In this document: positions 1,002 to 57,278 of the stretch, one piece after another
Layout: each line of letters opens with the position of its first letter
How positions within the stretch are numbered: position 1 is the stretch's first letter
Assembly (NCBI GenBank): GCA_014729675.1
Contig: WJJM01000039.1
Coordinates: forward strand, 1,479 to 65,478
DNA length: 64,000 nucleotides
Direction: 5' to 3'
Source of the DNA: Candidatus Woesearchaeota archaeon
Lineage (GTDB): Archaea; Nanobdellota; Nanobdellia; Woesearchaeales; WJKL01
Notes under the pieces: model-generated
Database searches by the model: none
Seen by the model: only the letters and a program-made list of their open reading frames with translations
Told to the model about the DNA's origin: nothing
Translations under genes and position numbers: made by a program

Positions 1002-4000
1002 ATGAAAGAGGGGTCAGATAGAAAAAACAGACTATTAAAGGCATTGCCTTTGGTCATAACTATCATCTTGATGGTTGTCTTGTTCTTTAGCTTAAGCAAT
1101 CTTCTTGGATCTTCTATAGATGTTAAGGATGAAGATGGAAATATAGTTGGAAAGTTTATCGTAGAAGAGAGAGAAGATGGAAAGTATGATCTTAGCCTTG
1201 AAAGTTCAGGTTATTCAGTGGGATCCTCTTCAGAAGAGATTGTCAGCAGTGTAGAAATAAAAGGTTCAGAAACTGATTCTATAAATTCAAGATTGGGCTA
1301 TGTTGATGACAATATGATAAACACTCAAGTTTTTGCAGTTGAAAATGCAAATGTTGAATCTGCAGAGATAACTGTTGAAAAGTTTGGAGATGTTAAACAT
1401 ATATACAAATGCGTTGATTTTGACATCGATAATTTTAGATGCAATGATTGGGAAAAAACAGATATTCCTTTCATCGATAATGGAGAGAGTATAACTTTTA
1501 CTGTAGATGGTTTTTCTGGATATGGTGGAGGAGCTGATATCTTTATCGGATGGGACAAGAAGATAGACTATGTTGGTGAGCATGACAGAGCTTATGATGT
1601 TGTTGTAGATAGTAATGATGATGTATATGTGGTTGGCAGATTGAGTCAAAATCAAACATTTAACTATGATCAGGACTGGTGGATAAAGAAATATAACAGG
1701 ACTGGTTATGAGTTATGGGAGAAAATATATAATAGAAATGGTGGTGATGAAGCTATAGCTGCTGCTTTGGACTCTGATGATAATATCTATATTGCAGGGA
1801 CTGCAGAAAATATAGTTAATGTTTCAAGCGGTGTTGATTGGTGGATAAAGAAACTGGACAGTTCAGGAAATGAGATTATAGTGGGATGGAATAAATCTTT
1901 CAGCGGAGATAGTTTGCTTGGGAATGATTATCTTCATGATATTGCAGTGGATTCTGAAGATAATGTTTATGTCGCAGGATATGGGATTGATCTTATCAGT
2001 GGAGGATCAAATTATGATCCCTGGTTAATGAAATTTAATTCTTCAGGTCATAAAGAATGGGAAAAAATATATAACTTTGGTTCTCCTGCAGAGTTTCAGG
2101 ATATTGGGCTGGATTCTGAGGATAATGTCTATGTAGTGGGTAGCACTTCAGCATCACCTCTAGAAAAAGGATGGCTTATAATGAAATTCAGCCCTTCTGG
2201 AAATGGATATTGGAATAAGACCCTTGATCTTTCACAATACGGCTCTGGCGCTTATGCAGTTGCATTAGATGATGAAGATAATATTTATGTGGGTGGCTTT
2301 GCTACCAATTATGTATCTGAAATTCCTACTAGCTCGGCAGATGTGGTGATAAAGAAATTCAATTCAAGCGGAATTGAAGATCCAAATTTGAACTTGAGTT
2401 TTGATTATAACTGGCAAGCTGATATCATCAGATCGATGATTATAGAAAATGGATCTCTTTATACTGCAATACAAGCTGGACAATCTTCTGGAGATTCTAT
2501 GTGGGGCATAAAAAAATTCAATCTTTCAGGTGATGAAGATCCTAATTGGAATATGACATTTATCAGTGAAGCTATCACTAGCACATATAGCCATGCTATC
2601 CTTTTTGGAATAGATTCTGATAGTTTTAATGATATATATGTGGCTGGATTTGGGACTGATCTTGTAGATGATGATAGCGGTAATGATTGGTGGATAAAGA
2701 AATTTTCAGGGAATTTAACACAAGCAGAGTATAATGAATCACTCTTAAAAGATGTTATAATCGAGCTTGTTGAGCCTTCTTCAAACTCAGAAGTTGAAAA
2801 AAATAAATTCTTTGATTTTACTGTAAATGTTACATGCACAGATGATGAAGATTGTGGTCTGCTTAATGTAAGCCTTGATCCGGTATCATGGTGGGATGGT
2901 GATTGGAGATATAGAAATACTATAACAATCCCAAGTGGAAAGGTAAGTTCTGATCTTGAAGATTTTCCTATGCTTGTGAAGTTTGATTCAGATGATATTG
3001 ACTTTACAGATGCAAAATCAGGAGGAGAGGATATAAGATTTTTAGATTCTGATGAGAATCTTCTTTCATATGAGATAGAAAGATGGGACAGTTCAGAGCA
3101 GAAAGCTGAAGTTTGGGTTAAAGTTCCTGTTATTAGTTCAACTGAATCTACTGTATTGTATCTGTATTACGGCAATGATGATGCTTCAGATGCTCAGGAT
3201 CCTGATGATGTATGGGATGATAATTTTAATGGTGTTTGGCACTTAACAGAGAATGTTTCTGGAACTGGTGATACTGGAGTATATATTGATTCAACAGACA
3301 ACAACAATGACGGAACAGATTATGTTTCTTCTGATTCTAAAATCGGAAAAATACAAGGAGGACAGGGATTTGATGGGGATGATTATATAGATGTCCCTGA
3401 TGATTCTAGTTTGGACAATTCAGTGTATACTATAACTGCATGGATCAATATGAGCAGTGGAGGATATCAACTTGATGGAATATTTGCCGCACAGACCTAT
3501 GATTATATTATTGCAGGGGGAAATGGAGATTTTGAAGCTATAAGGGGTAATAAATATTTTAAAGATGTGGGAACTAATCTAGATGATGGCCAATGGCATC
3601 ATGTTGTGTATAAATATGATGGTGTGGATGATCTTTTCTTTATAGACGGCATATCTGAAACTCCAGGAGCAACAGGTTCAGCATCTTATACTGATATGAT
3701 AGCAATTGGAAGAAGCAAATGGGGTTATTTTGATGGAGATATAGATGAAGTCAGGGTTTCTAATTTTGCAAGAAGTGATGCATGGATTATAGCTGAATTT
3801 GATAATACTAATGATCCTTCAGATTTTTATAATTTAGGAGAAAAGGAAATTGGATCAAAATCAGGATTAATATCTACTGAAATAGGAGAAACTCCATTTT
3901 ATACAACAACAGACAACCCATATCAGGTTGATCTTGATTCAGGCGAGTCTCAGCTTGTAACCTGGGAAGTTAATGCTACAGGATTATACAGCATAGTACA

Positions 4001-6974
4001 TGAGTTTTTCGCTTATGCATCTTTAGATGATAATTTATATATATTGAATGAGAGTGAGAGGATAAATATAACCATAACAGACCAAGAAGATCCATCTGTT
4101 GAGCTTGAATCTCCTGCAGATGAAAAGGTTCTTACAGTAACTTTTGAAACATTTGTATGCAATGTTTCAGACAATTATGGCCTTTCAAATATCACTCTAA
4201 TGGTATGGGATTCTGAAGGTAATGTTGAATATTCATATAGTAAAGAATCAGCAGGTTCAGAAGATAATCTTGAGAAACAATATGTTTTCAGTTCTTCAGA
4301 GGATTACGATTGGAACTGTATAGCTTATGATAGTTTTGGCAACAGAGGAATTGCAGGTTCAAACAATTCACTGAATGTACAGATACCTTCTTTAAATATT
4401 CAGCTTGTAGATCCTGATTCAAATGTGAGCTGGACACAAAATAAATTTGGAAATTTTACTGTGAATTTTTCATGCAATGATTATGATTGCGGAGAGGTTA
4501 ATGTAACCTTAGATCCTTTGGCTGAATGGAGCAATTCGAAACTTGTAAAGATAGACAATGCAGGCAATACTGAACTGATAAATAATAGTGTAAAGATAAT
4601 TTTTGATACACAGAGTGAGATAGCAGAAGGAGATATGCAAGATGATTGTGATGATATAAGATTTATGGATACAGATGATTCAACTGCCTTAGATTATTGG
4701 CTTGATTCTGATACATGTGATACAGAAGAAACAGAGATATGGGTCAAGATACCATCTATAGATTCTAACAGCATAAAGTACATCTATCTTTATATGGGCA
4801 ATGAAAGCGCTGAACAGGGATCAGATGCTAAAGGTGTTTTTCCTAATCAAAATATAAACCATCCTGACTTAAGCGGATATACTGATGTCATATATGTCGA
4901 TGCTGAACTTGGAAATGATATTTCAGGAGATGGAAGCTTAGACAATCCTTATCAGACATTGAGAGAAGCGGCAGATTATGATGATCCAGATGATGCTATT
5001 TATCTTATGCCTGGAACTTATGAAGAAAGAGGGGGTGGCCCTACATTAGATGGGGATCTTATAGGTGCTTTAGGTGGAAAGGTGATTATCAATGCAGGTG
5101 TTTATGGAAATACATGGAGAAGAGCAATATGGCTTACAAACAATGAGCATAATTTCTATAATATCATCTTTGAGCATTATAATGGATCAGACGGATCAAA
5201 CTATTATTTTGGAGATGTGGGTTCTGACAGCATATATTTTTACAACTGTGTTTTCAGCAATGCGGTCTATGATGGGCTTTATCAAGACAGTTATTTCAGG
5301 AATATAGATTATGTGTACTTAAACAATTCATTTGAGAATACGTATCTTAAGTCATTGGGGCAGGCAGAGGTAAAAATATCATTGAATTCAGTAATGAATG
5401 ACTCTGAGTCCTTTACACTTCAGACTACAAGCCTTTATGCAAATGAAACCTCCTATGATTCAGAGTGGCAATTGACATCAGGAGAGTGGGAAAATGAAGG
5501 GACAGGTACAAATCCTGATGGAACTAAGGCCAATATAGGAGTATATGGAGGGGAATATGCATGGGGTTATTGGGGTCCTGCAACTTCTGTAAATGAGAAA
5601 GGCAGAGTTTCAACTATAGTTGGAGATATTCCTTTTTATACAATAACTGACAATCCTTATATAACTGATCTTGATGCAGGTGAATCTCAGATTATAACAT
5701 GGCAAGTAAATGCTACAGGACCTATAGATAATACTTATCTTTTCTTTGTCCATGCAAACTCAACAAGTGACAGCACTATAAATTACAGGACTGAAGATAT
5801 CTATATAACTATAACAGATGAAGGATGCACTGATTCAGATTCAGATGGTTATGATGCTTGTGATCTGAACGGAAATCCGATAGCTGGATGTGATAATCCC
5901 TGTGATTGCAATGATACAGAATTAAATATCAATCCTGGAGAAGAACAGTGCGGGAACTGCATAGATGATGATGCAGATACATATATTGATTATCCTGCTG
6001 ATACAGATTGTTCAAGTTTGGATGATACAACTGAAGATGATGGAGCAGGAGGGAATGAACCTGTATGGGCTGACATATCAGTTGTTGTAACTGATGAAGA
6101 CCTTACAGACACAACGACTACGCTTTCAGATTATATTGTTTCAGGCTGCGATCTTGGCTGCACTTATACTGTTCAGTCAGATTCTGCAGGCATAACTGCA
6201 GATGTAATAAACGGAAATACATTAAGAGTAGTTCCTGATGGAAATTACAGGGGTTATGGAAATGTAACTGTAAGAGCTGCAAATCTTGAAGGGCATTCAG
6301 ATGAATATATTGATGTTAAAGTGTTATCTATACCTGACTTTGGAACAGATATACAGTTGGATGAAAACTATTTTAACGGAGAGAATACCACTGATATTAG
6401 TGCTCTTACAGATATTGTTGGAGGATATCAAAATGAATCTGATCCTCTTCATGCATACTCTAATTCAGTATATTTCTTCTCATTAGAAAGAACACTCATA
6501 GGAAAGGTTACATTTGAAGGATATTTCCCTTTTGTATGGGATCTTCTGCTTTCAGCGTCAAATGTTGTTATAGAGGAAGGATACATCTCTGTTGACTCTG
6601 ACTCTATATTCAAAAAAGTAAGCTACTGGATACATCATCCAATGGCAAAAGTTGAACTTTACAATATAGATCCTGCAGAATATGTGACTGATGGAGAAGG
6701 AGTTCCGATAGTTTATAGGGATGAAGATTTCCATCTTGCAGATGAGGACAGAACAGGCTGGCCTGAATGTGGATCAAATTGTGAGCCAGTTACATGGAAC
6801 AGTACAACCGGAACACTTACCTTTTATGTAGATGAGTTCTCATCACATACTCTTGATAAGTCTAATGGACAAGATCCTCCAGGAGGAGTTCCTGAGTTTT
6901 CTGCAATAGGTATGATCATCGCTATGATTCTAATGGGGATAGGCATGACCATAATTATACATAAGAAGAAATGA
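1002..6974 (+). CDS. Giant (1990 aa) secreted multidomain surface protein with PEF-CTERM anchor; beta-propeller WWIKK repeats, two DUF2341-like jellyroll modules, LamG-like lectin domain, beta-helix-like segment, Cys-rich module
   Basis: AGAGG SD 7 nt before ATG; N-terminal TM/signal LLKALPLVITIILMVVLFF; about 8 repeats of the D..D.VYV.G...(D)WWIKK motif; IRF.D.....L.YEIE.WD....A.VWVKVP......IYLYYGN twice; LamG-like WHHVVYKYDGV; C-terminal GGVPEFSAIGMIIAMILMGIGMTIIIHKKK. Confidence 0.7.
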   Translation: MKEGSDRKNRLLKALPLVITIILMVVLFFSLSNLLGSSIDVKDEDGNIVGKFIVEEREDGKYDLSLESSGYSVGSSSEEIVSSVEIKGSETDSINSRLGYVDDNMINTQVFAVENANVESAEITVEKFGDVKHIYKCVDFDIDNFRCNDWEKTDIPFIDNGESITFTVDGFSGYGGGADIFIGWDKKIDYVGEHDRAYDVVVDSNDDVYVVGRLSQNQTFNYDQDWWIKKYNRTGYELWEKIYNRNGGDEAIAAALDSDDNIYIAGTAENIVNVSSGVDWWIKKLDSSGNEIIVGWNKSFSGDSLLGNDYLHDIAVDSEDNVYVAGYGIDLISGGSNYDPWLMKFNSSGHKEWEKIYNFGSPAEFQDIGLDSEDNVYVVGSTSASPLEKGWLIMKFSPSGNGYWNKTLDLSQYGSGAYAVALDDEDNIYVGGFATNYVSEIPTSSADVVIKKFNSSGIEDPNLNLSFDYNWQADIIRSMIIENGSLYTAIQAGQSSGDSMWGIKKFNLSGDEDPNWNMTFISEAITSTYSHAILFGIDSDSFNDIYVAGFGTDLVDDDSGNDWWIKKFSGNLTQAEYNESLLKDVIIELVEPSSNSEVEKNKFFDFTVNVTCTDDEDCGLLNVSLDPVSWWDGDWRYRNTITIPSGKVSSDLEDFPMLVKFDSDDIDFTDAKSGGEDIRFLDSDENLLSYEIERWDSSEQKAEVWVKVPVISSTESTVLYLYYGNDDASDAQDPDDVWDDNFNGVWHLTENVSGTGDTGVYIDSTDNNNDGTDYVSSDSKIGKIQGGQGFDGDDYIDVPDDSSLDNSVYTITAWINMSSGGYQLDGIFAAQTYDYIIAGGNGDFEAIRGNKYFKDVGTNLDDGQWHHVVYKYDGVDDLFFIDGISETPGATGSASYTDMIAIGRSKWGYFDGDIDEVRVSNFARSDAWIIAEFDNTNDPSDFYNLGEKEIGSKSGLISTEIGETPFYTTTDNPYQVDLDSGESQLVTWEVNATGLYSIVHEFFAYASLDDNLYILNESERINITITDQEDPSVELESPADEKVLTVTFETFVCNVSDNYGLSNITLMVWDSEGNVEYSYSKESAGSEDNLEKQYVFSSSEDYDWNCIAYDSFGNRGIAGSNNSLNVQIPSLNIQLVDPDSNVSWTQNKFGNFTVNFSCNDYDCGEVNVTLDPLAEWSNSKLVKIDNAGNTELINNSVKIIFDTQSEIAEGDMQDDCDDIRFMDTDDSTALDYWLDSDTCDTEETEIWVKIPSIDSNSIKYIYLYMGNESAEQGSDAKGVFPNQNINHPDLSGYTDVIYVDAELGNDISGDGSLDNPYQTLREAADYDDPDDAIYLMPGTYEERGGGPTLDGDLIGALGGKVIINAGVYGNTWRRAIWLTNNEHNFYNIIFEHYNGSDGSNYYFGDVGSDSIYFYNCVFSNAVYDGLYQDSYFRNIDYVYLNNSFENTYLKSLGQAEVKISLNSVMNDSESFTLQTTSLYANETSYDSEWQLTSGEWENEGTGTNPDGTKANIGVYGGEYAWGYWGPATSVNEKGRVSTIVGDIPFYTITDNPYITDLDAGESQIITWQVNATGPIDNTYLFFVHANSTSDSTINYRTEDIYITITDEGCTDSDSDGYDACDLNGNPIAGCDNPCDCNDTELNINPGEEQCGNCIDDDADTYIDYPADTDCSSLDDTTEDDGAGGNEPVWADISVVVTDEDLTDTTTTLSDYIVSGCDLGCTYTVQSDSAGITADVINGNTLRVVPDGNYRGYGNVTVRAANLEGHSDEYIDVKVLSIPDFGTDIQLDENYFNGENTTDISALTDIVGGYQNESDPLHAYSNSVYFFSLERTLIGKVTFEGYFPFVWDLLLSASNVVIEEGYISVDSDSIFKKVSYWIHHPMAKVELYNIDPAEYVTDGEGVPIVYRDEDFHLADEDRTGWPECGSNCEPVTWNSTTGTLTFYVDEFSSHTLDKSNGQDPPGGVPEFSAIGMIIAMILMGIGMTIIIHKKK

Positions 6975-38286: not shown

Positions 38287-39018
38287 TTATTGCCACTGTT
38301 TTAAGGCATCTTCTTCTACAAAATGCAGATTTCCAGGTATTATTAAACATTGCGGTGTATGCTTTAGTTCTATGTCTTTTATTTGTTCTGCTGTCCTTGC
38401 TATTATCTCTTTTTTTTCTGAGCCTAATGCTGAACATGCAATACATAATTGATCTTCTTTTAATCCTAATTTTAGAAGTCTTTGTATAGCTTCTTTAATT
38501 GTCAGGAATCTGTTGTTTATAGGATTCAGGTCTAATAAAAACAATGTATGCAGGCCTATGCTCTGATTTTTCTTAAAAAAATCATAGAAGCTGTTAGCTT
38601 TTTCATCAAAAGGGATAGAAACAGTCCTTCCGAACTTGTAGAGCTCTAATCCCATGATTCCTATAGCATTTAATATGGATGTGTTGTTTATTACTTTAGT
38701 TTCTATCTTTAGTTCTTTTGCTCTTAGCATAAGATCTGTATGTGTTGTCGCTCCAAATGGGTCTCCTATCACAAGGAAAGCTGTATCTTGTGTTTTTGCA
38801 TCTTTAAGTATGGTCGATTCTGCCTGTTTTTCAACCATGTCCCTGTCTGCCAATATTATATCTTTACCGTAAAGTTTTTCCAGAGATTCTTTAGAACATT
38901 GAAGTTTTGAAGTGTAGGATTCTAGATAGATCTTATTGCAGGATTTGATCGCTTCTAATCCTTTTAATGTAATGTCTTTTTCATTGTTTAATCCTAGTCC
39001 TATGAAATATAATGTCAT
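38287..39018 (-). CDS. dphB: Diphthine synthase (tetrapyrrole-methylase fold)
   Basis: MTLYFIGLGL...DITLKGLEAIKSCNKIYLE N-terminus and overall 243-aa size typical of Dph5/DphB. Confidence 0.8.
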   Translation of the reverse strand: MTLYFIGLGLNNEKDITLKGLEAIKSCNKIYLESYTSKLQCSKESLEKLYGKDIILADRDMVEKQAESTILKDAKTQDTAFLVIGDPFGATTHTDLMLRAKELKIETKVINNTSILNAIGIMGLELYKFGRTVSIPFDEKANSFYDFFKKNQSIGLHTLFLLDLNPINNRFLTIKEAIQRLLKLGLKEDQLCIACSALGSEKKEIIARTAEQIKDIELKHTPQCLIIPGNLHFVEEDALKQWQ

Positions 39019-44084: not shown

Positions 44085-44837
44085 ATGGATGTTTATGAAG
44101 CTATAAAACAGAGAAGGAGCATAAGGAAATATCTTGACAAGCCTGTTGAGTGGGAAAAAGTTTCTTCTGTTATAGATGCAGGAAGATTGGCTCCCAGTTC
44201 AGGAAACATACAGAACTGGAAGTTTATCGTTGTTAATGATACAGACAAGAGAAAAGAGCTGGCTGAAGCTGCATTGAAGCAGGTATGGATAGAGACTGCT
44301 CCTGTGCTTATAGTTGTATGTGCAGAGCCAGTTACAGCAGGAAGATTTTATAATAACAGAGGAGAGGAGCTTTATACAAAACAGAATTGTGCAGCAGCTA
44401 TAGAAAATATGCTTCTTGAAGCTACTGAACTTGGCCTTGGAACATGCTGGGTAGGTGCTTTTGAAGAGAAGATGGTGAAAAAAACACTTGGAGTTGAAAG
44501 CAAGGTTGAAGTACATGCCATCATAACCCTTGGCTATGCTGCTGAAGAAGTTCCAGAGCCTGCAAATTTCCCGCTTGAGCATGTTACTTATTTCAACGGA
44601 TGGATGGGAAAGATAAAGGATGTTCCAGGGTATATGGGCTGGCAGTCAATGAAGAATCCAGCAAGGATAGAAAAAGCAAAAGAAGTTTCAAAAACAGCTG
44701 GTGAGAAAGCTGCTCAGGCTGGGAAAGAGATAGGAAAGAAAGCAAGAGATATATATGAAAATATAGCTTCAAGGATAAAAGCAAAGAAAGAAAAGCAGAA
44801 GATAATGAAAGAGTATGAGAAAATCTACGGCAAGTAA
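44085..44837 (+). CDS. Nitroreductase-family flavoprotein with K-rich C-terminal tail
   Basis: EAIKQRRSIRKY...SSGNIQNWKFIVV nitroreductase signature. Confidence 0.7.
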   Translation: MDVYEAIKQRRSIRKYLDKPVEWEKVSSVIDAGRLAPSSGNIQNWKFIVVNDTDKRKELAEAALKQVWIETAPVLIVVCAEPVTAGRFYNNRGEELYTKQNCAAAIENMLLEATELGLGTCWVGAFEEKMVKKTLGVESKVEVHAIITLGYAAEEVPEPANFPLEHVTYFNGWMGKIKDVPGYMGWQSMKNPARIEKAKEVSKTAGEKAAQAGKEIGKKARDIYENIASRIKAKKEKQKIMKEYEKIYGK

Positions 44838-44876
44838 TCAGCAGTTTTATAAATAGAATTTTCTAATTGTTCTTTT

Positions 44877-46934
44877 ATGTGCGGGATAATAGGAGTATTT
44901 AATCGCAAGGATAGTGTCAAGTTAGTTGAATCTGGATTGAAAGTTATATCTTATAGAGGAAAGGATCATACAGGAGGGTCTAAAGTTAATGATGGATGCA
45001 TAGGCCATTGCCTTCATTCTGTTGTTGATTCAGTGAAACAGCCGATAGATGGCAGATTTACAGTTAACTGCGAAGTTTATAATTGGAAGGAGTTGGATGA
45101 TAAATATTCTTTAGAAGCTAAGAATGATGCAGATATGCTTTTCAATCTTCTTGAAAAAAAAGGCGTATCTGAAGAAGTTCTTGATGAGCTTGATGGAGTT
45201 TATGCTTTTGCCTATGTTAAAGATAATAAATTATATATTGCAAGAGATATAATAGGGATAAAGCCAGTTTGGTATAGTCATTCTGAAGGATTTGCATTTG
45301 CTTCTGAGAAGAAGGCTTTGGAGTCTATTGGTTATATAGATATTGTTGAGCTTAATCCAAGAAAGATTATAGAGTATGATATTGTATCTGATAGATTGTC
45401 TTTTGTTGAAAGAGATTTTTTTTCTATAAAGCCTGAGCTGAAGGAGAGTAAAGAAGGGATTATAAATAGGCTTAGCAGGCTGCTTGATGATGCTGTATCT
45501 AAGAGGATCCCTTCAAGGAAATTTGGATTGTTATTTTCCGGAGGAGTAGATAGTACATTTTTGGCTATGATGCTGAAGAATAAAGGATATGATTTTACAT
45601 GCTATACAGCTGTATTGGATCATCCAGATTTTAGGGTTCCTGAAGATTTGATTTATTCTAAGAAGATTGCAGATTCTTTAGGTCTTGATCTGAAAGTTGT
45701 GAAGATCAAGCTTGATGATATTGAAGAGTATATTAAAAAAATTGTTCCCCTTATCGAGAATTCAAATGTTGTTAAGGTTGGAGTGGCTTTAACTTTTTTT
45801 AAGGCATGTGAGGAAGCTTCTAAAGATGGATGTAAGGTAATCTTTTCTGGGTTAGGTTCAGAGGAGATATTTGCAGGATATGAAAGGCACAAGAATTCAA
45901 GAAACATAAACGAAGAATGCGTTTCTGGATTATTGAAGATGTATGAAAGAGATCTTTATAGGGATGATGTTATAACGATGTTCAACAGTCTTGAATTAAG
46001 GGTCCCTTTTTTAGATAAAAGATTAGTTGAATATTCTTTGAAAATTCCTGAGAAGTTTAAGCTGACTTCTTCAAACAATAAGATGATATTTCGTGATGTT
46101 GCTCTTGATATGGGGCTTTCAGAAGAGTTTGCTTTAAGAGGAAAGAAAGCTGCGCAGTATGGGAGTAATTTTCATAAGTCATTGGAGAAACTGGCTAAGA
46201 AAAATAAGTTTAAGTATATTTCTGAATATTTGCGCCAGTTTTATCCAGGGCATAATGTCAAGTTAGGAGCATTAGTCAGCAGTGGAAAGGATTCAATATA
46301 TGCTATGCATGTCATGATGAGGCAGAACTATAAGATAAACTGTATGATAAGCCTTTTTAGCTCTAATCCTGATTCTTATATGTTCCATACGCCTGCTGTT
46401 GATCTTGTCAATCTGCAGGCTGAGTCTATAGGCCTGCCTTTATTGCAGTTTAAGACTGAAGGGAAGAAAGAAGATGAGCTTGAAGATCTTAAGAAAGCAC
46501 TTCTAAAGGCTAAGGAAGAATATTGTATTGAAGGGATTGTTACAGGAGCTTTGTTTTCCAACTATCAAAGAGAGAGGATAGAAAAGGTTGCAGATTCTTT
46601 GGGATTGAAGATATTTGCTCCTTTGTGGCATATCAACCAGGAGACAGAGATGAGAGAGATAATTGATAATGGTTTTAAGTTTATAATCGTAAAAGTTATG
46701 GCTGACGGGCTGGATAAAAGCTGGTTGGGAAGAGTTATTACAGATGAAGATGTTGATAGATTGGTTGAGTTGGATTCAAAAATGGGTTTTAATGTCGCTG
46801 GAGAGGGTGGCGAGTACGAGACACTTATGATAGATGGGCCAATATTTAATAAAAAGATAAAGATTGTTGAAAGTTCTACTGAAGAAGAATCTTCTATTGT
46901 TGCTGAGCTGAAGATTGAGAGGGCTGAATTATAA
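44877..46934 (+). CDS. Three-domain fusion: class-II glutamine amidotransferase + AsnB-type PP-loop synthetase + Dph6-type diphthine-ammonia ligase PP-loop domain
   Basis: MCGIIGVF (Ntn Cys1); FSGGVDSTFLA (first PP-loop); VSSGKDSIYAMHV...EGIVTGALFSNYQRERIEKVADSLGLKIFAPLW (MJ0570/Dph6-like second PP-loop). Confidence 0.55.
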   Translation: MCGIIGVFNRKDSVKLVESGLKVISYRGKDHTGGSKVNDGCIGHCLHSVVDSVKQPIDGRFTVNCEVYNWKELDDKYSLEAKNDADMLFNLLEKKGVSEEVLDELDGVYAFAYVKDNKLYIARDIIGIKPVWYSHSEGFAFASEKKALESIGYIDIVELNPRKIIEYDIVSDRLSFVERDFFSIKPELKESKEGIINRLSRLLDDAVSKRIPSRKFGLLFSGGVDSTFLAMMLKNKGYDFTCYTAVLDHPDFRVPEDLIYSKKIADSLGLDLKVVKIKLDDIEEYIKKIVPLIENSNVVKVGVALTFFKACEEASKDGCKVIFSGLGSEEIFAGYERHKNSRNINEECVSGLLKMYERDLYRDDVITMFNSLELRVPFLDKRLVEYSLKIPEKFKLTSSNNKMIFRDVALDMGLSEEFALRGKKAAQYGSNFHKSLEKLAKKNKFKYISEYLRQFYPGHNVKLGALVSSGKDSIYAMHVMMRQNYKINCMISLFSSNPDSYMFHTPAVDLVNLQAESIGLPLLQFKTEGKKEDELEDLKKALLKAKEEYCIEGIVTGALFSNYQRERIEKVADSLGLKIFAPLWHINQETEMREIIDNGFKFIIVKVMADGLDKSWLGRVITDEDVDRLVELDSKMGFNVAGEGGEYETLMIDGPIFNKKIKIVESSTEEESSIVAELKIERAEL

Positions 46935-46938
46935 TAAA

Positions 46939-47044
46939 CGCTCCCTCAGGGATTTGAACCCTGGTTTTAGCCTTATTGCAAATGAGCATCTTTAGAATGC
47001 AGTTACCGCAAGGCTACGTACTATCCAGGCTATACTAAGGGAGC
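46939..47044 (-). tRNA. Intron-containing tRNA (about 32-nt intron in anticodon loop); anticodon most likely GCG (Arg), GAT (Ile) not excluded
   Basis: Acceptor GCTCCCT/AGGGAGC, D-arm GTAT..GTAC with A20, anticodon stem TAGCC/GGCTA enclosing 39 nt, T-arm CAGGG-TTCAAAT-CCCTG, discriminator G. Confidence 0.55.
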
Positions 47045-47071
47045 ATTAAAAAACAGAAATCAGAGGATTAT

Positions 47072-56943: not shown

Positions 56944-57124
56944 AACCGAAGAGCAAGACTATGGTGCTTTCGATCAGATATATCAGAGCGGCGCTCTATT
57001 GTCCATAAGCAAATATATGGCTTATACCAGACTAAGCAACGGGCTCAGTAATAAAAGGTGCCCTGGGGCAGACCCAGGGCTCTGGCATAAATACTTGTTT
57101 AAATGTGTTCATGCCCATATTGTA

Positions 57125-57211
57125 CGCCCCGAGCAAGACTCGAACTTGCGACCTTGCGGTTTCAGCTTTTGGCTTAACAGCCGCACGCTCTACCTGCTAA
57201 GCTATCGGGGC
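57125..57211 (-). tRNA. tRNA-Asn (anticodon GTT) with about 14-nt intron after position 37
   Basis: Acceptor GCCCCGA/TCGGGGC, D-arm GCTT-AGCAGGTA-GAGC, anticodon stem TGCGG/CCGCA, loop CTGTTA(A), T-arm GCAAG-TTCGAGT-CTTGC, discriminator G. Confidence 0.6.
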
Positions 57212-57278
57212 ATCTAGCAGAAAGGAATTATGATGATTTATAAAAGTTTCTTTTTAAGGGCTGGAAAAACAAACCTAA

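Follow-up and report, generated by a model that had tools for sequence, protein, structure and literature searches.

A 64-kb stretch of the genome of a Candidatus Woesearchaeota archaeon (contig WJJM01000039.1 of assembly GCA_014729675.1; hereafter the window, in which all nucleotide positions are given) carries a gene whose product joins a class-II N-terminal nucleophile (Ntn) glutamine amidotransferase (GAT-II), an AsnB-like PP-loop domain, and the diphthine–ammonia ligase Dph6 on a single polypeptide. Dph6 adenylates the diphthine carboxylate on archaeal EF-2 (aEF-2) and then amidates it, yielding diphthamide, a conserved modification of EF-2. The gene is a single unbroken open reading frame (ORF) of 685 amino acids (aa) at 44877..46934 on the forward strand, and ORF calling together with Pfam and NCBIfam boundaries bears out the three-domain composition that a preliminary description had read from the letters, including its quoted motifs, i.e., MCGIIGVF (aa 1-8), FSGGVDST (aa 220-227), VSSGKDS (aa 467-473), and GEGGEYET (near aa 642-649). 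The product is 100% identical to an NCBI entry already named 'diphthine--ammonia ligase [Ca. Woesearchaeota archaeon]' (P0001). With GAT-II, Asn_synthase PP-loop, and DUF71 in this order on one chain, the protein is a Woesearchaeal ortholog of the AsnB-like–DUF71 fusion family, for which both the architecture and the idea of ammonia supply are already known; beyond the literature found, our analysis adds only the residue pattern of the middle domain as well as forms of the family that are split or lack the glutaminase (GAT-less).

Domains of the fusion protein and its genomic setting

In sequence and in modelled fold, the C-terminal domain (aa 462-683; 46260..46925, forward strand) bears all the hallmarks of Dph6. 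It is covered in full by Pfam Diphthami_syn_2 (DUF71/PF01902; E 8e-68), and it scores 283.8 bits against the NCBIfam equivalog TIGR03679 (Dph6_archaeal; cut-off 197.3), spanning model positions 2-217 of 218. Its PP-loop reads SSGKDS (aa 468-473; nt 46278-46295) and an EGGEYE motif lies at aa 643-648. Matches to solved structures are strong (E 7e-53 to 3RJZ and 1e-52 to 2D13), with ~50% identity to PF0828 and PH1257, and the modelled domain superposes on 3RK1 and 2D13 with Foldseek TMt values of 0.92-0.93 at a root-mean-square deviation of 1.4-1.6 Å. Nine residues have been singled out as Dph6-specific (de Crécy-Lagard et al. 2012, Biol Direct 7:32, PMC3541065), namely S44, Y45, E78, Y103, Q104, A149, E183, E186, and E188 of PF0828; all nine are identical in the aligned domain, and across 67 fusion proteins these columns show either no variation or at least 90% conservation. 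Assignment to a DUF71 paralog of B12 salvage or to a generic ATP pyrophosphatase was rejected because the paralog models fall far below their cut-offs (PAB0415, 74 bits against 250; TTX_0299, 48 bits) while Dph6_archaeal lies above its own. The earlier identification of this domain as a true Dph6 is thus upheld.

The two domains at the N-terminus together adopt the AsnB fold (Foldseek TMt 0.76-0.78 against human asparagine synthetase, ASNS, and AsnB); the Cys nucleophile and the ATP-binding PP-loop are both intact. The glutaminase domain (aa 2-~180; 44880..45416, forward strand) is delimited by Pfam GATase_7 (aa 61-149, E 7e-17), by GATase_7 and GATase_6 jointly (~41-149), and by alignment to 1CT9 and 6GQ3. 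The AsnB-like PP-loop (Asn_synthase) domain follows at aa ~190-445 (45444..46211, forward strand), as judged from Pfam, NCBIfam, alignment, and Foldseek; Pfam Asn_synthase matches aa 199-342 and a second stretch further on (E 2e-42), and the PP-loop SGGVDS occupies aa 221-226 (nt 45537-45554). Against asparagine synthase models, the protein reaches 256.9 bits for TIGR01536 (asn_synth_AEB), just under the cut-off of 267.1, and 201.9 against 499 for PRK09431. Placement of the middle domain with GAT-QueC or other PP-loop families was rejected, the matches being weak and at the level of the PP-loop (QueC, E 2.7e-4; tRNA_Me_trans; DUF7411).

To survey catalytic residues, 120 fusion clusters were aligned to E. 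coli AsnB (1CT9) and human ASNS (6GQ3). AsnB numbering follows an E. coli sequence of 553 aa, the length of the 1CT9 chain, whose key motifs and numbering agree with the HMMER alignment to 1CT9. The nucleophile, Cys2 in the 685-aa protein (AsnB Cys1), is retained in 117 of the 120 clusters, and glutaminase residues N64, E66, and D84 (AsnB N74, E76, and D98) are retained as well. In the middle domain, the SGGxDS PP-loop and R387 are present in every cluster, K449 in 119, and D384 in 116. Other positions are replaced throughout: R49 by Leu (Leu46 here; 115/120), with a conserved His alongside in the alignment; G75 by Cys (Cys65 here; 115/120); T322 by Lys (120/120); E348 by Leu (118/120); and, family-wide, R324/325 (R325 in the literature) by Gly, K376 by Gly, and D351 by Glu. 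The AsnB motif SGEGSDE is divergent (SGLGSEE), with the acidic pair E329/E330 standing at AsnB D351/E352. The glutaminase domain also has motifs of its own, H-C-L-H-S (aa 44-48) for H-x-R-L-S and N-C-E (aa 64-66) for N-G-E, the latter with a Cys beside the oxyanion-hole Asn that is conserved in 115 of the 120 clusters.

Published work on human ASNS provides a frame for these replacements. There, Arg-48 contacts glutamine, while the amino-acid end of β-aspartyl-AMP is held by Glu-364 (E. coli E348), Asp-367, and Glu-368; moreover, variants E364A, E364Q, and D367A show no activity (Zhu et al. 2019, PMC6748925). Since the residues for aspartate binding and β-aspartyl-AMP are replaced, the middle domain looks like a working ATP pyrophosphatase and not like a canonical asparagine synthetase. 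Of the preliminary label 'AsnB-type synthetase', the fold and the PP-loop therefore stand, and the residues essential for β-aspartyl-AMP chemistry do not. The pattern reaches beyond the fusions: an exhaustive HMMER search with aa 1-455 returned 641 representatives at E <= 1e-30, and among the best 150 of these, Glu occurs at position 348 in none, most sharing a K322/L348/E351/G376 signature. By sequence criteria, these AsnB-like modules are a distinct archaeal subfamily in which the residues for aspartate binding and β-aspartyl-AMP have been replaced.

Between the two enzymes lies a short connector (aa 446-461, …SEYLRQFYPGHNVKLG…; 46212..46259, forward strand), recognizable from invariant columns and from its spacing. 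Y451 and Y456 do not vary within the fusion family, and in 124 of 125 fused proteins 41-49 aa separate the AsnB-like R-x-K motif from the Dph6 PP-loop, exactly 47 aa in 98 of them. An AlphaFold2 (AF2) model built on 67 fusions is compact and confident (mean pLDDT 90.6, pTM 0.83, no segment with pLDDT <50), which fits a fixed inter-domain arrangement.

Around the fusion gene, direct reading of the sequence locates a TATA-like box, TTTATAAA, at 44846..44853 on the forward strand; because it lies 24 nt 5' of the ATG, it suggests that the gene may be transcribed from a promoter of its own, into an mRNA with a very short leader or none. The diphthine synthase gene dphB/dph5, which the preliminary description had placed ~6 kb upstream, is real (38287..39018, reverse strand; TIGR00522, 251 bits, cut-off 114) and lies 5.86 kb upstream of the fusion gene. 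It is on the opposite strand, however, separated by four ORFs (FtsZ, a 137-aa ORF, DNA ligase, and a nitroreductase), and dphB occurs in the flanks of only 2 of 57 related genome loci (flanks of several kb being available for ~45). Operon linkage was rejected on these grounds; the two genes share a pathway and are not co-transcribed. No second Dph6 or AsnB-like gene was found in the 64-kb window.

Immediately 5' of the fusion gene, the nitroreductase-family gene (44085-44837, forward strand) encodes a Lys-rich C-terminal tail of ~70 aa, and its best NCBIfam match is BluB, far under the cut-off. On the 3' side, a convergent tRNA-Arg(GCG) gene (46938-47045, reverse strand) ends only ~4 nt from the fusion-gene stop codon; it has a 32-nt intron in the anticodon loop, was missed by default ARAGORN, and was recovered by Rfam and by ARAGORN -i. 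A tRNA-Asn(GTT) gene at 57124-57212 (reverse strand) has a 14-nt intron and was given by default ARAGORN as 'tRNA-???' with a 4-base anticodon.

Distribution and architectures of the family

The best 120 clusters (90% identity) consist entirely of fusion proteins, which are 639-742 aa long, share 57-69% identity with the query, and nearly all match it over its full length. They derive from NCBI, JGI, ENA, and Logan assemblies, and more than 120 clusters share the architecture. A scan of GTDB species genomes gave 57 related loci, most with a full-length match. As for phylogenetic spread, which the preliminary description had left for checking, full-length matches are found in Woesearchaeota/Nanoarchaeota (DPANN) and, at 45-50% identity, in metagenome-assembled genomes (MAGs) that bear the labels Methanophagales (ANME-1), Methanosarcinales, or Halobacteria, as well as in a single one labelled Nitrosotalea.

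The AsnB-like subfamily is broader than the fusion. Among the best 150 representatives of the search with aa 1-455, 51 carry a Dph6 domain. Stand-alone proteins composed of the glutaminase and the PP-loop domain (P0141, 459 aa; P0133, 468 aa; P0148, 449 aa) lie in neighbourhoods without Dph6, as does a 295-aa PP-loop-only protein (P0215). Another candidate stand-alone homolog (P0121) was rejected, the protein being truncated by the end of its contig.

A metagenome scan seeded with PP-loop-only proteins yielded 80 loci, which fall into (i) 15 with the three-domain fusion of GAT, PP-loop, and Dph6; (ii) 3 with a GAT-less PP-loop–Dph6 fusion (L066, 507 aa, 3962-5485; L072, 501 aa, 1307-2812; L094, 494 aa, 3992-5476), in which the upstream genes are unrelated; (iii) 4 with an unfused Dph6 gene within ~3 kb of the PP-loop gene (L068, L078, L091, and L111); and (iv) 58 in which Dph6 was not found in the flank. 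One further locus shows a split form: in a Woesearchaeota MAG (GCA_016926055.1; L063, 5001-6532), a 281-aa PP-loop-only ORF overlaps a 229-aa Dph6 ORF by ATGA. The two ORFs are in different frames, the break falls exactly at the fusion junction, and no glutaminase lies upstream. Here the Dph6 PP-loop reads SGGKDG, the final Ser having been lost. The split could be a genuine fission, or a gene that is decaying or was mis-sequenced.

Overall, the PP-loop subfamily is linked to Dph6 recurrently, in four architectures. Because these include GAT-less forms, it is the PP-loop domain that recurs alongside Dph6, with the glutaminase as an optional part. Some PP-loop-only genes (~300 aa; L084-L092 and L125) lie, in 5-6 loci, near genes that look by eye like those for aIF5B, a DRG-type GTPase, and prefoldin beta; this is a possible hint of a translation-linked role for the PP-loop-only members.

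Possible roles of the AsnB-like module

We consider the chances about even that Dph6 amidates diphthine with the AsnB-like module as its partner and that the glutaminase, where present, supplies NH3 from glutamine. The glutaminase would hydrolyse glutamine, and the released NH3 would travel through an AsnB-type tunnel. The middle domain would serve as an obligate partner of Dph6, with diphthine amidation running on glutamine at low free ammonium, and, because GAT-less versions exist, the PP-loop–Dph6 partnership would be the older one, with the glutaminase as its accessory. Glutamine channelling to Dph6 is a plausible hypothesis. In favour of the scheme stand the domain assignments, the conserved Dph6 signature residues, the retained nucleophile and middle-domain residues, the spread of the fusion across DPANN and other archaeal MAGs, the conserved connector, the compact AF2 model, the recurrent linkage of the PP-loop subfamily to Dph6, and the fact that an identical hypothesis is in print (PMC3541065).

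Several observations weigh against this scheme. (i) The glutamine-binding Arg49 is Leu in 115 of the 120 clusters, so that the use of glutamine is itself not certain. (ii) The stand-alone GAT+PP-loop proteins (P0141, P0133, and P0148) and the PP-loop-only protein (P0215) without Dph6 nearby mean that an AsnB-like module can work without Dph6. (iii) As the GAT-less PP-loop–Dph6 proteins make plain, Dph6 can do without the glutaminase; since such fusions and operon pairs exist, the conserved coupling is that of the PP-loop domain with Dph6, and the glutaminase is not always included. (iv) The strictly conserved ATP site of the middle domain suggests that this domain may catalyse a reaction of its own, as opposed to being a passive conduit.

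A broader version of the partnership would have the divergent AsnB-like PP-loop domain, with or without a glutaminase, act in many archaea (DPANN, ANME-1, some Methanosarcinales and Halobacteria) as an obligatory partner of Dph6 that has so far gone unrecognised, perhaps building an ammonia path into the Dph6 site, or else catalysing a second ATP-dependent amidation, on aEF-2 or on a translation component related to it. We hold this version tentatively and think it rather unlikely as a whole. Were an ammonia path into the Dph6 site to exist, diphthamide synthesis would be glutamine-dependent. To our knowledge, the nitrogen source of the last step of archaeal diphthamide synthesis has never been tested.

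The second possibility, to which we give a lower though still substantial probability than to glutamine-fed Dph6, is that two autonomous enzymes share one chain, with an AsnB-like amidotransferase whose glutaminase serves its own PP-loop site alone and which acts on another, possibly translation-related, carboxylate, and with Dph6 using free ammonium like its stand-alone counterparts; the fusion would then serve co-expression or complex formation and not ammonia sharing. The strict conservation of the ATP-binding residues in the middle domain fits such an arrangement, as do the GAT+PP-loop and PP-loop-only members without Dph6 nearby, the GAT-less PP-loop–Dph6 fusions, and the location of PP-loop-only genes, at 5-6 loci, near apparent genes for aIF5B, DRG GTPase, and prefoldin. 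It would also agree with a published comment by Aravind (PMC3541065) that all characterised enzymes of the AsnB family have a tunnel leading to their own, cognate synthetase site. However, no candidate substrate is known, and repeated fusion to or adjacency with Dph6 in several architectures, along with a conserved rigid connector, points to more than co-expression.

A bifunctional protein, in which a true, though divergent, glutamine-dependent asparagine synthetase forms the N-terminal module and is joined to Dph6, is improbable. Its best hidden Markov model matches are indeed asparagine synthase models (TIGR01536, at 256.9 bits, and PRK09431), the stand-alone relative P0141 just passes TIGR01536 (268.2 against 267.1), and the acidic pair E329/E330 is retained together with D384, R387, and K449. 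The fusion protein itself, however, stays under the TIGR01536 cut-off, and E348 is Leu in 118 of the 120 clusters, a position at which the human E364A and E364Q variants are inactive (PMC6748925). Furthermore, T322 is Lys while R324/325 and K376 are Gly family-wide, and Glu348 is absent from all 150 nearest representatives.

Lastly, an assembly or frameshift artefact joining two genes can be dismissed with near certainty: nothing was found in its support beyond the split relative (L063), whose halves in different frames show that split forms exist, and it is rejected because independent assemblies carry the same architecture, i.e., 120 fusion clusters, the mostly full-length matches at 57 loci, and 15 metagenome fusions, and because the junction is conserved.

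Comparison with known systems

The preliminary description presented the arrangement as one not known for the diphthamide pathway. This did not survive comparison with the literature: AsnB–DUF71 fusions have been described in Methanohalophilus, Methanosalsum, and Nanosalinarum, with an AsnB part made up of GAT-II and an Asn_synthase PP-loop, and it was proposed that glutamine hydrolysis could feed NH3 to both PP-loop enzymes (PMC3541065). As that paper published it, the central idea of the preliminary description is a rediscovery, and our result is modest as a discovery, given that the architecture is in print and that databases already annotate the protein as a diphthine–ammonia ligase. By the published description, the fusions of Methanohalophilus mahii, Methanosalsum zhilinae, and 'Ca. 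Nanosalinarum' have the same order of GAT-II, Asn_synthase PP-loop, and DUF71, while the lineage here is Woesearchaeota/DPANN. The 2012 paper gave no catalytic-residue analysis of the AsnB-like part and reported no GAT-less or split forms.

In review of that work, Aravind asked which PP-loop domain consumes the NH3, and what the AsnB-like one catalyses (PMC3541065). Our residue analysis narrows this question, in that asparagine is an unlikely product of the middle domain, which nevertheless stays tied to Dph6 even without a glutaminase. A literature search found no later biochemical test of glutamine-dependent archaeal Dph6, and the fusion family offers a natural system for testing the 2012 glutamine hypothesis.

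Compared with stand-alone Dph6 proteins (PF0828, PDB 3RJZ/3RK0/3RK1; PH1257, PDB 2D13), the Woesearchaeal domain is ~50% identical over aa 464-667 and shares all signature residues. Those proteins are, however, single-domain and ~220 aa long, whereas here ~460 aa precede the domain and its PP-loop is SSGKDS instead of SGGKDS. With AsnB/ASNS (1CT9, 6GQ3), the N-terminal module shares the two-domain fold, Cys1, N74/E76/D98, SGGxDS, D384, R387, and K449; in place of the ~100-aa C-terminal tail of AsnB stand the short connector and Dph6. The eukaryotic Dph6 of yeast, YLR143W, which consists of DUF71 with two C-terminal RidA/YjgF domains, likewise joins a Dph6 core to a domain for which NH3 delivery has been proposed (PMC3541065). 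There, however, the accessory domain is of an unrelated type, is attached to the opposite side of the core, and comes with no second PP-loop domain.

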